64,000 bases of DNA, taken from positions 32,001 to 96,000 of IMG/VR virus record IMGVR_UViG_3300036987_000083. One strand, given 5' to 3'. How positions within the stretch are numbered: position 1 is the first letter of the stretch; each line of letters begins with the position of its first letter. A program made the translations under genes and the position numbers. The notes under the pieces were generated by a model, which did no database searches, was not told the DNA's origin, and saw only the letters and a program-made list of their open reading frames with translations. Shown piece by piece: positions 1,444 through 53,600 of this stretch. This DNA comes from a virus.

Positions 1444-1480
1444 GTCCTGTTAGTAGCACAACGGCACTGCCTATGTCAAG

Positions 1481-1799
1481 GATGAGGCGGCTGTGGTGCT
1501 GGTGTGGTTGCTTGGGCTCTTGGCACGCCAGGCCCGGGGAGCACAACCTCTCCCTTCGGGCCTGGCGCGGGCACCCTCCGGGGCGCCTCCGTTGCGGCCG
1601 CGCAGAGGACTGCCGCTAGTTACCGGTGTTGGTCAGTCTGCGCGGCAGTTACTGTTGTGTCGTTGGGCGGCGCTTTCTTGAGGAATGTCCCGGCTCGGCC
1701 CCGCTCCTGGGTACTGGGTCCTTGGTGGAAAAACGAGCGCGCAGCCTAGGCGGCTGTATTGGCTACTTGTCCCTGTCTCGCAGGGCGCGCCCTGAAGGG
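1481..1799 (-). ncRNA. candidate structured non-coding RNA
   Basis: about 320 nt with no convincing ORF; several stems (CGCCAGGCCCG/CGGGCCTGGCG, ACTGCCGC/GCGGCAGT, CGCGCAGA/TCTGCGCG). Confidence 0.3.
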
Positions 1800-1985
1800 T
1801 TAGGTGATGGACGCCTGCGCCTGCTCCAGGCACTGCTTCGCGAAGGCATCCCGCGCGGTGTAGTTGCGGATGGGGTTCTCCTTGTCGAAGGCCTTGAGCT
1901 GCTCCGAGACGGCCTGCATCACCTTGGTGTTCCGGTTCGAGCGAGTCTTGCTAGCCCGAACCTGCGCCTTCGTACGGTTTCCCAT
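1800..1985 (-). CDS. small basic hypothetical protein
   Basis: AAGGAG SD and own promoter at 2042. Confidence 0.65.
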   Translation of the reverse strand: MGNRTKAQVRASKTRSNRNTKVMQAVSEQLKAFDKENPIRNYTARDAFAKQCLEQAQASIT

Positions 1986-2043
1986 GTGCTACTCCTTGGT
2001 TCTTCGAGTGGAGAACATCTATACTGCATGCAGACTGCCCTTG

Positions 2044-2292
2044 TCAAGGGCCAAGAGGCCAGCATATCTCCCAGCTTCCGTTAGCATTGCGCCTCCAGAC
2101 GGTATGGACTACCTCCGTGCCCAAATCGCGTACTTGCACGCTGTACTCCGGCGGGTTGAAGAGCTTCGACACTTTCTCCAGTCGGTCAGCGGCGGCCTGC
2201 GCCGCAAGTAGCCCCTCGTACACGCCCTCCACTTGGTAGATGACTTCCTTGGCGTCATCCAGGCCGGAGGACATCAGGATGTAGACTCTCAC
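2044..2292 (-). CDS. hypothetical protein (start uncertain)
   Basis: ORF whose TGA lies inside the next TTGACA. Confidence 0.55.
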   Translation of the reverse strand: MRVYILMSSGLDDAKEVIYQVEGVYEGLLAAQAAADRLEKVSKLFNPPEYSVQVRDLGTEVVHTVWRRNANGSWEICWPLGP

Positions 2293-2445
2293 GGCATCAC
2301 CACAAAGGAGCTGGTGAGGGTACGCGGACTCTGCATCGGGGCGGTGTCGAGGACCATACGCGTCTTGTAGCACAAAAAGACCGTCGTTGTCAAGTACATC
2401 CTAGTGGAATGTGGGTAGGGAGTTTTCTGTACCCTGTCGCTGTCA

Positions 2446-2461
2446 GCGACCATGTGGTCGC
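2446..2461. repeat. 16-bp palindrome GCGACCA-NN-TGGTCGC
   Basis: GCGACCATGTGGTCGC. Confidence 0.95.
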
Positions 2462-2522
2462 GGGTGCCTGGGTAGGGCTACCGATGAGCTATAGGCCTGA
2501 GTAGCCCGAGCTACTTCCCGAG

Positions 2523-2594
2523 TGACCCCACCGGGATTCGAACCCGGATTCTCACCTTGAAAGGGTGGCGACCTAACCCTTAGTCGATGGGGCC
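2523..2594 (-). tRNA. trnE: tRNA-Glu(UUC)
   Basis: cloverleaf; loop CTTTCAA; TTCGAAT T-loop; no encoded CCA. Confidence 0.95.
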
Positions 2595-2687
2595 TTGCTG
2601 CTGTTTTTCTAGCATGAGGTGAGTAGAAGTACGAAGATTACGGGGGACCACGTCAACAGCGTTTCGATTACAACTTGTTTTGTCATA

Positions 2688-2759
2688 TAGACGCGGCTGG
2701 ATTCGAACCAGCGACCCGCTCCGTGTAAGGAAGCAGCTCTACCCCTGAGCTACGCGCCT
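2688..2759 (-). tRNA. trnV: tRNA-Val(UAC)
   Basis: cloverleaf; stem GCTTC/GGAGC, loop CTTACAC. Confidence 0.93.
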
Positions 2760-2760
2760 G

Positions 2761-2833
2761 TGGGACCGGTGGGACTCGAACCCACGACCCTCGGCTTAAA
2801 AGGCCGGTGCTCTACCACCTGAGCTACGATCCC
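2761..2833 (-). tRNA. trnK: tRNA-Lys(UUU)
   Basis: cloverleaf; loop CTTTTAA; 1 nt from tRNA-Val. Confidence 0.95.
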
Positions 2834-51149: not shown

Positions 51150-51283
51150 GCCTCCTTATACAGCCTTTGCCTTGCCGCTGTCAAGCTCTCTCCATGCCCA
51201 TTCGTCGAATTTGCAGGAGGGGAGTTTTCCAACGTCAATTGGCACAAAAAATCCGCTGGCCCCAGGTTTGGGTGCCAGCGGAT

Positions 51284-51299
51284 GCGACCACGTGGGCGC
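51284..51299. repeat. 16-bp palindrome variant abutting TAA
   Basis: GCGACCACGTGGGCGC. Confidence 0.85.
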
Positions 51300-51782
51300 T
51301 TACGCCGCGAGGGGCAGGCGCACCGTGAGGGGCGCGGTGTCGCACTCGACGGGCGGGGGCAGCGGGCGGAGCCAGACGCGCTCGGCGCTCTCGTGCCTCT
51401 TGAGGTCCGGGCAGAACTCGCCCGCCTCGCGCTTGAAACACTCCCAGCCCTCGGGAACGAACCACGCGCCGTCATCGTACCATGAGGTGATGACTTCGAA
51501 GCTGTAGACGCCCTCGCCCGCAGGCTCCCAGTGCGCGGGCACCGTGGGCACCGCCTCGGGCGCATCGTCGATGTTGGCGCACTCGCCCGTGCAGCAGCAG
51601 CAGGAGCAGCCATTCTCCTCCATGGCCTCGCGCGCCTCGCGCGCCTTCTCGGCCTCGCTGGCCTCCACCGCGTCAGCCGCCTGCTCGTCGAGCCAGTCGG
51701 CGAGGGTGGCACCACGCGAGGGCATCGCGCGGGCGGGAGGGGAGATACGGAGGGTGGCGGGGCGAGCGGGGCGGGAGTGCAT
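51300..51782 (-). CDS. acidic Cys-containing hypothetical protein, leaderless
   Basis: TTGCAA-N18-TAGAAT-N6-ATG. Confidence 0.7.
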   Translation of the reverse strand: MHSRPARPATLRISPPARAMPSRGATLADWLDEQAADAVEASEAEKAREAREAMEENGCSCCCCTGECANIDDAPEAVPTVPAHWEPAGEGVYSFEVITSWYDDGAWFVPEGWECFKREAGEFCPDLKRHESAERVWLRPLPPPVECDTAPLTVRLPLAA

Positions 51783-51914
51783 GCACACATTCTACACTAT
51801 GACATGGCACCATTGCAACTCATTTGAAGGGCCCAATTGAAAATAAATGGCACAGCATTTGATTGCGCAATTAGACTGCCATGGGAGGAGGAAAACTCCC
51901 AATCGCTAGGCGTG

Positions 51915-51946
51915 AAAAAGCCCCGCCTCCCTGTGGGAAGCGGGGC
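51915..51946 (-). terminator. intrinsic terminator
   Basis: GCCCCGC stem plus U-tract on minus. Confidence 0.8.
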
Positions 51947-51961
51947 CGTCCATGTGGTCGC
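51946..51961. repeat. 16-bp palindrome variant abutting TAA
   Basis: CCGTCCATGTGGTCGC. Confidence 0.85.
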
Positions 51962-52234
51962 TTAGGGCTTCACAGCACCCTTGGCGAGCAGGCCCGCGTA
52001 GTGCGCGCGCGCCCACTTGATGGGGTGAATTTCGTGACCGTGGGACTGCTTGCGGGTGTTGCTGAACTCCATCACACCCACAGCCACGCCACCCGTGGGC
52101 AGGGGCGCGAACACGGTGAGCGAGGAGGTAGCGGCGTTGTAGAGCGCGTGCTGACCTTCAGGCAGGCTCGCGACGTAGGTCACGACAGCGCGGGGGAGGA
52201 CAGCGGCAGCGGCAGCGGGGCGGGAAGTGGTCAT
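51962..52234 (-). CDS. hypothetical protein, leaderless
   Basis: TAGACA..TAAAAG-N6-ATG. Confidence 0.7.
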   Translation of the reverse strand: MTTSRPAAAAAVLPRAVVTYVASLPEGQHALYNAATSSLTVFAPLPTGGVAVGVMEFSNTRKQSHGHEIHPIKWARAHYAGLLAKGAVKP

Positions 52235-52451
52235 GCACCCCTTTTACAGGATGAGCACGCCACTTGTCTAGTTATTTGTTTCGGTCAAATGAAGATAGTT
52301 TTGGGCACCTGGCGCACCGCGTTAGACGTCGACCCCGAGTTCCTTGCAGCGCTTGCGCAGCTCTTCAGAGAGGCGAGGCTTTCGGCCGCATCGGCACTCT
52401 TCTTCGAGTAGGTCTTCAATCAATTTACGAAGCAATTCCGTTTCAGTCATT

Positions 52452-52673
52452 TCAGAGTCCTTGGCACTTCCTACAGTCGCACTCTCCCCAGACGGAAGCC
52501 CCGCAGGGAGGCTCCTGAGGAGGGTACAGGGCGCGAAGGTACTCGCGGGCGGCTTGCCGGGCCTGCTTCTCGATGGCGCGCTCCTGAATGTCGGCGGAGG
52601 CCCCTGACTGCACCCGATGACGGGGGATTGCCCGCTTAAGGTTTTGCCCCACCTTTCTCTCTCGGTAGCTCAC
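52452..52673 (-). CDS. basic protein with C-terminal Cys cluster
   Basis: GTGA overlap. Confidence 0.6.
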   Translation of the reverse strand: MSYRERKVGQNLKRAIPRHRVQSGASADIQERAIEKQARQAAREYLRALYPPQEPPCGASVWGECDCRKCQGL

Positions 52674-53044
52674 TGCGAAGCCTCCTCTCTCAACTCCCAC
52701 TCTCGGCGGGTGCCCACGTCGTAGTTACCTTCTTCGAGGTCCGCCAACGCCTCCCACTTCTGCCACTCCCTCGCGTACTCTGGAGAGCCGTAGCAGGGCT
52801 GAATCGCGTGCCAGTGCGGATTGAATTGCGGCGGGCGGAAACGTCCCTCCTTCATGGCAAGGGCAACCCGCCCCATCATCCGCAGCCCCTCCGCGTGTGC
52901 CTCCTCCCTCCCCAACTCGTGCCCTTTGAAGACATGGGCATGCGCCCACCGACTCCCCCTCTCATTCTCGACGACGACAGACACCGCGTCGTGTTCATCG
53001 CAACCCTGTTGGTACACATTCACCATGAGGGAGACGATGAACAC
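52670..53044 (-). CDS. hypothetical protein (W....P.YGS.EY); first gene of the leftward region
   Basis: GAGGT SD; promoter at about 53100. Confidence 0.7.
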   Translation of the reverse strand: MFIVSLMVNVYQQGCDEHDAVSVVVENERGSRWAHAHVFKGHELGREEAHAEGLRMMGRVALAMKEGRFRPPQFNPHWHAIQPCYGSPEYAREWQKWEALADLEEGNYDVGTRREWELREEASQ

Positions 53045-53104
53045 CGGACACCTCAGGGACTTCGGGGGAGCCCCCTCCTACCACATGACAAGTCATAGTG
53101 CAAG

Positions 53105-53600
53105 CGTCTTGCAGGGGTGCATGGAGGGTTGCCGGTGGTGTAGACACCGGGAAAACTCCGGGAAAACTCCCATACATGGTATAAGAGGGCCTACTTCTCC
53201 GGTTCAGAACATTTAGAAAAGTAGGTCCTATAAGCAGGGCCCTCCACCTTCAGTCATATTCCGGGGTACCTGCGCCCCCTAGTCGCTGTACATTAAGTAC
53301 TGCCCTTGTACAGCACGGGATGGCCCCCATGGTACGGTGCCTCTAAGCGCTGAGCTGTGCGTACGGTGCGTATCGGTCCATCTCGGTGCGGACAGCGCGT
53401 CTGCCGGTGTCAAAACCCAAAAAGTTTGGATTTTACCAAAACCCGTTTTTGGAATTTTTGGTGGAACCAGGGGTGGGGCACCTGTTTGACAAGTGACTGC
53501 AACAGTGAAGGGAGCGCTTGGCGAGTTTTTTTGAGTAGCAGGGTGTGGTGTTGTGGTATGGTGCGGTCAGCTTCCGAAAACCCTGACAACCGAGGTCCCT
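53105..53600. other. non-coding divergence junction with phased repeats and A/T tracts
   Basis: tandem box pair, inverted repeat, CGGT at a 10-bp period, phased A/T runs. Confidence 0.55.

Follow-up and report, generated by a model that had tools for sequence, protein, structure and literature searches.

The early-gene arm of a distant T4-superfamily phage

The 64,000-nt stretch analysed here (the window) comprises bases 32001-96000 of one 179,489-bp linear virus contig (IMG/VR record IMGVR_UViG_3300036987_000083), which is estimated to be 88% complete (CheckV), and most of it is occupied by an array of small genes that are separated by recurring intergenic junctions. In the plus-strand half of the contig, Pfam profiles identify a T4-type portal (Portal_T4, gp20), a Gp23 major capsid protein, a gp21-type prohead protease (S77) and a tail sheath, and the capsid protein has at most ~34% identity to any record in the phage collection. 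Judged by these core genes and this low identity, the phage is a very distant, uncultured myovirus of the T4 superfamily. Genes were called with a simple codon-usage caller of our own, which places 207 mostly small genes between contig base 1 and ~85.1 kb, 174 of them on the minus strand; plus-strand genes dominate from ~85.6 kb of the contig, and the structural genes lie beyond ~100 kb.

The array forms an early-gene arm, or hyperplastic region, that runs from the left contig end, 32 kb before the window, to a divergence point at 53.1-53.6 kb of the window (coordinates below are window positions unless stated otherwise). Its window part (1-53171, mostly minus strand) carries ~130 small genes according to the gene calls and motif maps. 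The original prediction had let the array begin at position 1474, but the segment 1474-53171 is only the right-hand two thirds of the early arm. This segment holds 131 called genes with a median length of 85 amino acids, 111 of which are on the minus strand, and only nine small paralogue groups are found genome-wide, in agreement with the earlier description of more than 100 mostly unrelated micro-genes. Ten small early-arm proteins with homologues in related phages gave no informative Pfam match, and no DNA binder was identified among them.

Anatomy of the junctions

The junctions draw on five parts that occur in variable order, namely a 16-bp palindrome, a predicted intrinsic terminator, the word CCWGG, an 11-bp box in either orientation, often together with GTGGAA, and a promoter. 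In the fullest form the order is stop codon, palindrome, terminator, CCAGG, box, -35 and -10 elements and start codon, all junctions being read in gene sense. The junction at 48682-48817 (minus strand) is of this kind: the TAA stop codon abuts the palindrome (48799-48814), directly after which come a GC-rich hairpin and T-tract predicted to be an intrinsic terminator (48764-48797, minus strand), CCAGG, a box in gene orientation (48734-48744, minus strand) that lies 22 nt upstream of the -35 element TTGACA (48711-48706), and the -10 element TATTGT (48687-48682). The example module that had been read on the minus strand at 48817-48699, with CTTGACAACGGCAG following the box, is present there exactly as claimed.

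Two arrangements of the box can be distinguished. In type A, found mainly at 36-53 kb, the box has the orientation of the gene and is located typically 10 nt past CCAGG and 12-47 nt before the -35 element. In type B, found mainly at 2-35 kb, the box is inverted, TTCCAC(T) comes 5-12 nt later (mode 8-9), and the -35 element is next. The junction at 2360-2461 (minus strand) is of type B, with the palindrome at 2446-2461, the inverted box at 2418-2428, TTCCACT, 10 nt and the -35 element at 2388-2393, and the type B junction at 9030-9122 (minus strand) resembles it. A "second order", in which an inverted box is followed by the palindrome, 9 nt and the -35 element, is present at 21055-21107 (minus strand), 28304-28387 and 34615-34665, the three places (21.1, 28.3 and 34.6 kb) where it had been noticed before. 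Furthermore, three convergent junctions (18.3, 31.9 and 44.5 kb) combine GTGGAA, box and palindrome and have no promoter. The first two had already been recognised as composites and are indeed found, with palindrome, 2 nt, GTGGAA, 8 nt and box at 18343-18385 (plus strand) and palindrome, GTGGAA and box at 31877-31943 (plus strand). Neighbouring junctions tend towards the same arrangement.

Many junctions are minimal, so that the -35 hexamer overlaps the TGA stop codon of the preceding gene and terminator, box and palindrome are all lacking. A box lies within 80 nt upstream of only 19 of the 59 promoters described below, and a palindrome of only five. The notion of one module with fixed parts thus cannot be upheld, since the box occurs in both orientations, most promoters lack box and palindrome, and many are bare; at 36.5 kb, where the same parts were said to recur, only the palindrome and a hairpin are present. 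The word CCWGG is treated as a minor part, because it is rare genome-wide relative to expectation and only its gene-sense form is enriched, about twofold, in intergenic DNA.

Predicted promoters, terminators and leaders

Within 1474-53171 there are 59 sigma70-type promoters (TTGACA with a TA-type -10 element at 16-19 nt), compared with 4.1 in shuffled sequence, and 54 of them are on the minus strand, which is the gene strand. They follow the consensus gcTTGACAAcGGCAG-N-tgTATAAGg, with the core TTGACA-N17/18-TATAAG, and their density peaks at 30-90 kb of the genome. At 32 of the 59 an ATG or GTG is found 4-9 nt past the -10 element, which suggests leaderless early mRNAs for over half of the predicted promoters, and nine others share the conserved leader CGCAGTCGAAAGGAA.

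Terminators were judged from a hairpin scan together with a reading of the junctions. Between 36 and 54 kb a simple scanner detects eleven hairpins on the minus strand that have stems of 10-14 pairs and a T-tract, and by eye hairpin terminators are seen at about two thirds of the box-bearing junctions and are lacking at many bare promoter junctions. With a predicted promoter of its own, and often a predicted terminator as well, each gene or group of genes would form a self-contained expression unit, as the original prediction had proposed.

A second promoter-like word occurs downstream of type A boxes, with the order box-N5-CCATGGCA-N6-TTGCACAATCAAAT...GCCATTTATTTT (or AACTAT). It is found at 36858-37094, 39028-39247, 41828-41995, 42320-42413 and 51783-51961, and some copies precede long untranslated leaders. 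Some of the boxes without a consensus TTGACA promoter nearby precede a second promoter type (TTGCAC...TTTATT/AACTAT).

The box as a probable phased upstream element

The box is the 11-mer GGGAGTTTTCC, of which the window contains 38 copies with at most one mismatch against 1.52 expected, a number that none of 100 shuffles reaches. Genome-wide there are 44 copies, and 42 of these lie within 17-86 kb of the genome. The partner GTGGAA accompanies 35 of the 67 box copies in this phage and its relatives (type B read on the other strand being GTGGAA-N8-box).

In this genome the distance between box and -35 element is 12, 13, 22, 22, 24, 31, 34 and 47 bp in type A junctions, and 14, 14, 16, 20, 24 (five times), 25, 34, 35 and 36 bp in type B junctions. 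The distances form clusters at 12/22/32 bp in the same orientation and at 14/24/35 bp in the inverted orientation, and the same clusters are found in relatives. For the type B junctions of this genome a Rayleigh test at 10.5 bp gives p ~2.5e-4, or ~2e-3 if any period of 8-14 bp is allowed (best period 10.5-10.75 bp), in a simple method of our own that treats the junctions as independent. Because the five exact 24-bp spacers are unrelated in sequence, the spacing appears to be maintained and not merely inherited. At an orthologous position, after the terminator of the DUF6011 gene (14755-14790, minus strand), the inverted box is identical in 11 of 11 bases and TTCCAC in six of six in this and two other phages, while the spacers have diverged and the flanking protein is 57-62% identical.

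Since the box is always located in untranscribed-looking DNA between the units, a role at the DNA level is most likely, and from its phasing the box is most likely an upstream promoter element that acts from one face of the helix. It may be bound by a phage protein, by a host activator or, as a UP-like element, by the alpha subunit of RNA polymerase. Phased upstream promoter elements are known as UP elements, which are bound by the C-terminal domain of the RNA polymerase alpha subunit, and as class I activator sites. The box resembles these in its site upstream of the -35 element, in distances that differ by whole helical turns, in its A4/T4 tract and, if both orientations are functional, in its use in either direction. 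It differs from UP elements in being more specific, since an exact 11-mer is kept across diverged phages, and in occurring also at junctions without a promoter. Sigma54, extracytoplasmic function (ECF) sigma, T7-type and marbox patterns were compared with the box by eye and rejected, as either spacing or sequence does not fit, and a full-text literature search for the motif strings returned no relevant paper.

The promoter-less copies also bring a different function into consideration, in which GTGGAA-N8-GGGAGTTTTCC would itself be a promoter, of a middle class, for a polymerase specificity that is modified or encoded by the phage. Inverted copies would then direct antisense RNA against the upstream early gene, and copies in the same orientation would serve as a tandem second promoter. 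The motif is bipartite with a constrained spacing, it persists at the convergent junctions where no sigma70 promoter is found, and it lies 60 nt upstream of the one plus-strand gene without a TTGACA promoter (22909/22979); moreover, it is missing from the late arm, where the upstream regions show a different, AAATAC-like word. Nevertheless, such a promoter appears unlikely, because the two elements of a promoter would not be spaced as loosely as 5-12 nt, the boxes in the same orientation lack GTGGAA, and helical phasing with a neighbouring -35 element is not expected of an independent promoter. As for the MotA-dependent middle promoters of T4, which have a box at -30 and a -10 element 11-13 bp downstream of it, a TAG-like word is found 10-13 nt downstream at only three of seven promoter-less TTCCAC sites, and no MotA-like activator was found, although the MotA_activ profile, which gave no match in the record, matched nowhere in the control search either. 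A role of the box as an upstream element of the sigma70-like promoters is thus preferred.

The palindrome as a proposed mark at gene 3' ends

The palindrome GCGACCAYRTGGTCGC is present at 22 distinct sites in the window, where 0.55 matches are expected, beginning at positions 2446, 8184, 9107, 12061, 13997, 16829, 18343, 21070, 24332, 28333, 31877, 34615, 36527, 39232, 41002, 42398, 44538, 46412, 48799, 51284, 51946 and 61575. The last of these (61575-61590) lies outside the box-bearing arm, 3 nt upstream of a plus-strand TTGACA promoter. Genome-wide there are 44 sites, including the late arm and a tRNA cluster, and 14 of them are at most 4 nt from a called stop codon, where GCGACC comes after TAA or TGA, or the first base is shared with a TAG. 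The stem of the terminator begins 0-3 nt past the palindrome in eight junctions, at least ten copies are placed 3-12 bp upstream of a -35 element, and other copies are found between the cistrons of late operons and after tRNA genes.

The location at the 3' ends of open reading frames (ORFs), between late cistrons and after tRNA genes would suit an element that acts in RNA, in which a hairpin of 6 bp with a 4-nt loop behind the stop codon is a processing or stabilising signal for a sequence-specific RNA-binding protein or nuclease. Such a hairpin has a predicted stability of -9.6 kcal/mol. Among 69 palindrome copies from this phage and its relatives, by contrast, 44 changes are unpaired and only two compensated, and a recurrent A/T change at position 4 or 13 lowers the predicted stability by half, to about -5 kcal/mol, which argues that the sequence is conserved and not the pairing as such. 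In addition, the copies directly upstream of -35 elements are perhaps not transcribed together with a gene.

The palindrome is retained in closer relatives and exchanged in a more distant one. In the late arm its positions are syntenic in the relatives L007 and G005, the capsid proteins of which are 92% and 85% identical to that of this phage. The relative G001 (176 kb, capsid protein 67% identical) has neither the box nor a GCGACC-type palindrome; instead, it carries another palindrome of 16 bp, CCGCCCGTACGGGCGG, to which AAT...ATT is often added (AATCCGCCCGTACGGGCGGATT), at 14 sites in the 161.5 kb examined. One copy of CCGCCCGTACGGGCGG is located a few bases past the stop codon of an intein-bearing large gene, a position at which the present phage carries the GCGACC-type palindrome, and the palindromes of both lineages have the same 6+4+6 geometry. 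A position and geometry that are common to the lineages, together with a lineage-specific sequence, fit a sequence-specific factor that co-evolves with its site, be this on DNA or on an RNA hairpin. Action in RNA is therefore a possibility to be kept in mind, even if we hold it to be somewhat unlikely on balance. In either case the palindrome would be a separate, genome-wide and sequence-specific mark at gene 3' ends, being either a DNA site for a dimeric protein or an RNA hairpin recognised by a protein. Since the box is helically phased and both words are strictly conserved, sequence-specific factors are indicated, and the proposal that expression is switched by factors binding to palindrome and box is plausible.

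Conserved words and shuffled genes in related phages

Several searches with the array remained without a relative: 12 kb of it gave no match to 50,697 phage records (megablast), IMG/VR searches seeded with two early-arm proteins revealed no close early-arm relative, and an IMG/VR pattern scan for the words returned chance single matches only. A pattern scan of metagenomes, on the other hand, identified at least eleven related contigs in which most or all of the three words are present and homologues of early-arm proteins are encoded. The comparisons below are made with these few, fragmentary contigs.

L213, 19.5 kb of a 42-kb contig from a sediment metagenome, has 51 called genes, 17 boxes, seven palindromes and roughly twelve promoters that follow the consensus found here; its locus is also carried by a 63-kb contig in ERZ27247924 and a 29-kb contig in SRR9617649. 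Homologues in the present phage exist for only 13 of its genes, 12 of them in the early arm, and the early-arm homologues map here to 64, 68, 57, 47, 55, 1, 70, 30, 79, 81 and 62 kb of the genome with no adjacency kept. Likewise, the short contigs L185, L192 and L184 join genes that are 20-80 kb apart in this phage. The late arm is collinear in relatives. In L133 four genes (43-51 kb of the genome here) stand in unchanged order, and the present phage carries three extra blocks, of cassette size, each beginning or ending at a part of a junction. One of these blocks is a gene for a LAGLIDADG homing endonuclease (15851-16675, minus strand), located between a junction module and the DUF6011 gene, where L133 has a promoter. 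Finally, L127 joins the 3' end of the gene that lies at 41.3 kb of the genome here, via a single module, to the genes at 34.0 kb of the genome. In the present phage the intervening 6.7 kb is flanked by the similar modules at 2.4 and 9.1 kb of the window, and the flanks of the two appear joined in L127, in a module that resembles the 2.4-kb one on its promoter side. As a product of recombination between similar modules, the L127 junction is suggestive only. In line with the original prediction, relatives differ in whole cassettes and in gene order while the junction words are identical, and the condition that was to refute it, an identical gene order among relatives, does not apply.

The uniformity of the words, the differences between the palindromes of the two lineages and the tendency of neighbouring junctions to share an arrangement would also be compatible with selfish or neutral sequences, that is, elements like REP (repetitive extragenic palindromic) sequences or miniature inverted-repeat transposable elements (MITEs), or copies homogenised by gene conversion, without a regulatory role. 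REP sequences and the bacterial interspersed mosaic elements (BIMEs) are intergenic palindromes of bacteria, and the palindrome shares with them a short and uniform sequence placed just after stop codons and at convergent junctions. It differs in being a perfect 16-bp dyad that occurs in single copies in a phage and keeps its position between relatives, and no Y1 transposase of the REP-associated (RAYT) kind was found in the record. Furthermore, the words are invariant at orthologous positions while the spacers diverge, the box is phased to the -35 element, and no target-site duplications or terminal repeats surround the words, so that a purely selfish or neutral origin is the least probable of the explanations considered here.

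The route of exchange

Pairs of junctions within the genome share 40-73 bp at 91-100% identity, which is enough for homologous recombination. The original prediction had suggested a search for a recombinase in the rest of the genome; in the 179-kb record no match to Phage_integrase, Resolvase or Y1_Tnp was found, in a search in which the positive controls worked (the integrase control in 14 of 14 genomes). Among 20 larger proteins, the only one that PHROGs profiles assigned to recombination or replication resembles a repair exonuclease. The ~12% of the genome that lies outside the record probably holds the replication module, and absences of recombinases and of RecA are thus not final. Since the record revealed neither an integrase nor a resolvase nor a Y1 transposase, exchange would most likely proceed by ordinary homologous recombination between the modules.

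An integron-like route had been drawn as an analogy before and would make the stop-abutting palindrome a site-specific recombination site for a dedicated phage recombinase. Like integron arrays, the early arm consists of many unrelated small ORFs, each of which would be directly followed by a palindromic element, as attC follows the ORF of a cassette, and gene content and order are scrambled between relatives, with the palindrome present at several of the cassette differences. However, the analogy breaks down in most of its parts. Neither a recombinase of the tyrosine or serine type nor a Y1 transposase is found in the 179 kb, the element is a perfect dyad of 16 bp and not an imperfect attC of 57-141 bp, and the cassettes have promoters and terminators of their own instead of being promoterless under one common promoter. 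The palindrome is absent from most junctions and is instead present at conserved, syntenic places in the collinear late operons and after tRNA genes, while the repeated homologies suffice for ordinary recombination, which makes an integron-like mechanism very improbable. A broader scheme, in which palindrome and GTGGAA/box together are the sites of one dedicated phage system that both times the early genes and catalyses site-specific gain, loss and inversion of single-gene cassettes, is likewise highly doubtful. If true, such a system would be a phage counterpart of the integron, with a protein partner that co-evolves with the palindrome, as the different palindromes at the same positions in the two lineages would imply. 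Homologous recombination between the junctions remains the preferred route.

Relation to PeSL cassettes

The promoter early stem-loop (PeSL) cassettes of T4-type phages comprise five parts, the stop codon upstream, an AT-rich region, a sigma70 promoter close to the consensus, a stem-loop that acts as terminator and the start of an ORFan (Arbiol et al. 2010, PMC2839356; Comeau et al. 2014, PMC4122927). They number ~50 per genome, are concentrated in hyperplastic regions and have a lineage-specific consensus; mini-circles have been associated with them, as have the indels and replacements by which close relatives differ (PMC2839356, PMC4122927). The present junctions show the same core of upstream stop codon, stem-loop terminator, a strong early promoter of sigma70-like type and the beginning of the following gene. 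They likewise lie in a hyperplastic region of small ORFans in a T4-superfamily genome, have at least ~50 copies per genome and a lineage-specific consensus, and accompany insertions, deletions and reordering between relatives. In sequence, the T4-superfamily genome, the repeated sigma70-like promoter, the stem-loop joined to it, the ORFan setting and the cassette differences between relatives all match the PeSL definition. The array had been presented as an undescribed phage analogue of such systems, but the genome is itself of the T4 superfamily, and a terminator and sigma70 early promoter in front of ORFans is what has been published as a PeSL.

The differences concern additions to this core. 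The AT-rich stretch lying upstream of the -35 hexamer, a variant and not a core feature of PeSLs, is not found here; in its place the DNA is GC-rich and contains the discrete 11-mer with its GTGGAA partner, in either orientation and helically phased. In addition, a long spacer word (ACGGCAG) is conserved in the host-type promoter, the -10 element of which is TATAAG, over half of the promoters seem to start leaderless mRNAs, and a separate, perfect 16-bp palindrome is found directly at stop codons and also beyond the early arm. Activity and mini-circles are known from the published systems, whereas the present junctions are described from their sequence. Compared in this way, the core of the junctions corresponds to PeSL cassettes in a new and distant lineage, to which box, palindrome, conserved spacer and leaderless starts would be the novel additions. 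In the relative G001 the repeated words form a PeSL-like kit that differs from the present one in its words. Its contig (L214-L220, L014) carries a second repeated word, GTCTCGGAATTTCAAGGATCCGAGCATC, in ~20 copies, which forms a hairpin overlapping a TTGAAA hexamer that resembles a -35 element.

Taken as a whole, an early hyperplastic arm built from PeSL-type regulatory cassettes in a distant T4-superfamily phage is, with moderate confidence, the probable explanation. The intrinsic terminator would insulate each unit, and a strong, host-type sigma70-like early promoter with extended consensus would drive it, often starting a leaderless mRNA. The box, usually with GTGGAA 8-9 bp away, would be a binding site upstream of this promoter, either for a factor of phage or host origin or for the alpha subunit of RNA polymerase, while the palindrome would act separately at gene 3' ends, as a DNA dimer site or an RNA hairpin. 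The 40-70-bp junction sequences are present dozens of times over, so that homologous recombination between them could delete, insert and reorder cassettes, which is also the mechanism that has been proposed for PeSLs (PMC2839356, PMC4122927).

Several points weigh against this explanation. A consensus TTGACA promoter is lacking within 80 nt of about half of the boxes, and the three convergent junctions hold GTGGAA and box without any promoter, so that the box is not strictly a part of promoters. The junctions that enter the phasing test may share descent. The L127 junction rests on a match of 28 nt on its upstream side, and breakpoints located at modules are weak evidence, since indels between genes fall into intergenic DNA anyway. 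Lastly, no RecA or UvsX match was found in the 179-kb record, which is a linear fragment, 88% complete and seemingly devoid of a replication module, so that the recombination machinery is not seen.

Other features of the genome

The two arms meet in a divergence region of 556 bp (53045-53600), which separates the minus-strand early arm from the plus-strand arm and contains two tandem boxes (53150-53171, minus strand), divergent TTGACA sites and an AT-rich stretch in which AAAA/TTTT words recur. The region may serve in control or as an origin. Genes for tRNA-Glu, tRNA-Val and tRNA-Lys (2522-2833, minus strand) and for tRNA-Ile(TAT) (11838-11910, plus strand) are located between early-arm cassettes, and an Rfam scan detected only four tRNAs. 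The early genes also include one of the ADP-ribosylglycohydrolase family (34726-35817, minus strand; Pfam E 1e-55), which merits attention because T4 ADP-ribosylates RNA polymerase.

Outside the window, the late arm encodes a protein of 1477 amino acids (L001:5826-10259; contig 105826-110259) with intein splicing, LAGLIDADG and HNH domains (Pfam), which, judged by these domains, is a host protein interrupted by at least one intein. Also outside the window, an array like those of clustered regularly interspaced short palindromic repeats (CRISPR) is found (L005:4689-7355; contig bases 4689-7355), with ~10 copies of the 36-nt repeat GTCTCGATTTCACAGCCATCGAGCTGGCTTTGTTAC and unique spacers of ~36 nt. 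It is adjoined by an ORF of 587 amino acids with a Cas12f1-like TNB domain, a homologue of which is present in G001 (32% identity). Array and ORF together look like a phage-borne, compact type V CRISPR-Cas locus.

Implications

If the explanation favoured here is correct, PeSL-type architecture is present also in a high-GC branch of the T4 superfamily that is very distant and uncultured. The phased, orientation-flexible box and the stop-abutting palindrome would be clean targets in a search for new factors, of phage or host, that govern early transcription or the ends of mRNAs, and the many apparently leaderless early genes are a further oddity that can be tested. The junction words agree in every letter between relatives, while three quarters of the early genes differ and the order of these genes changes completely; within the hyperplastic region, therefore, the regulatory scaffold is stable and the genes are replaceable.

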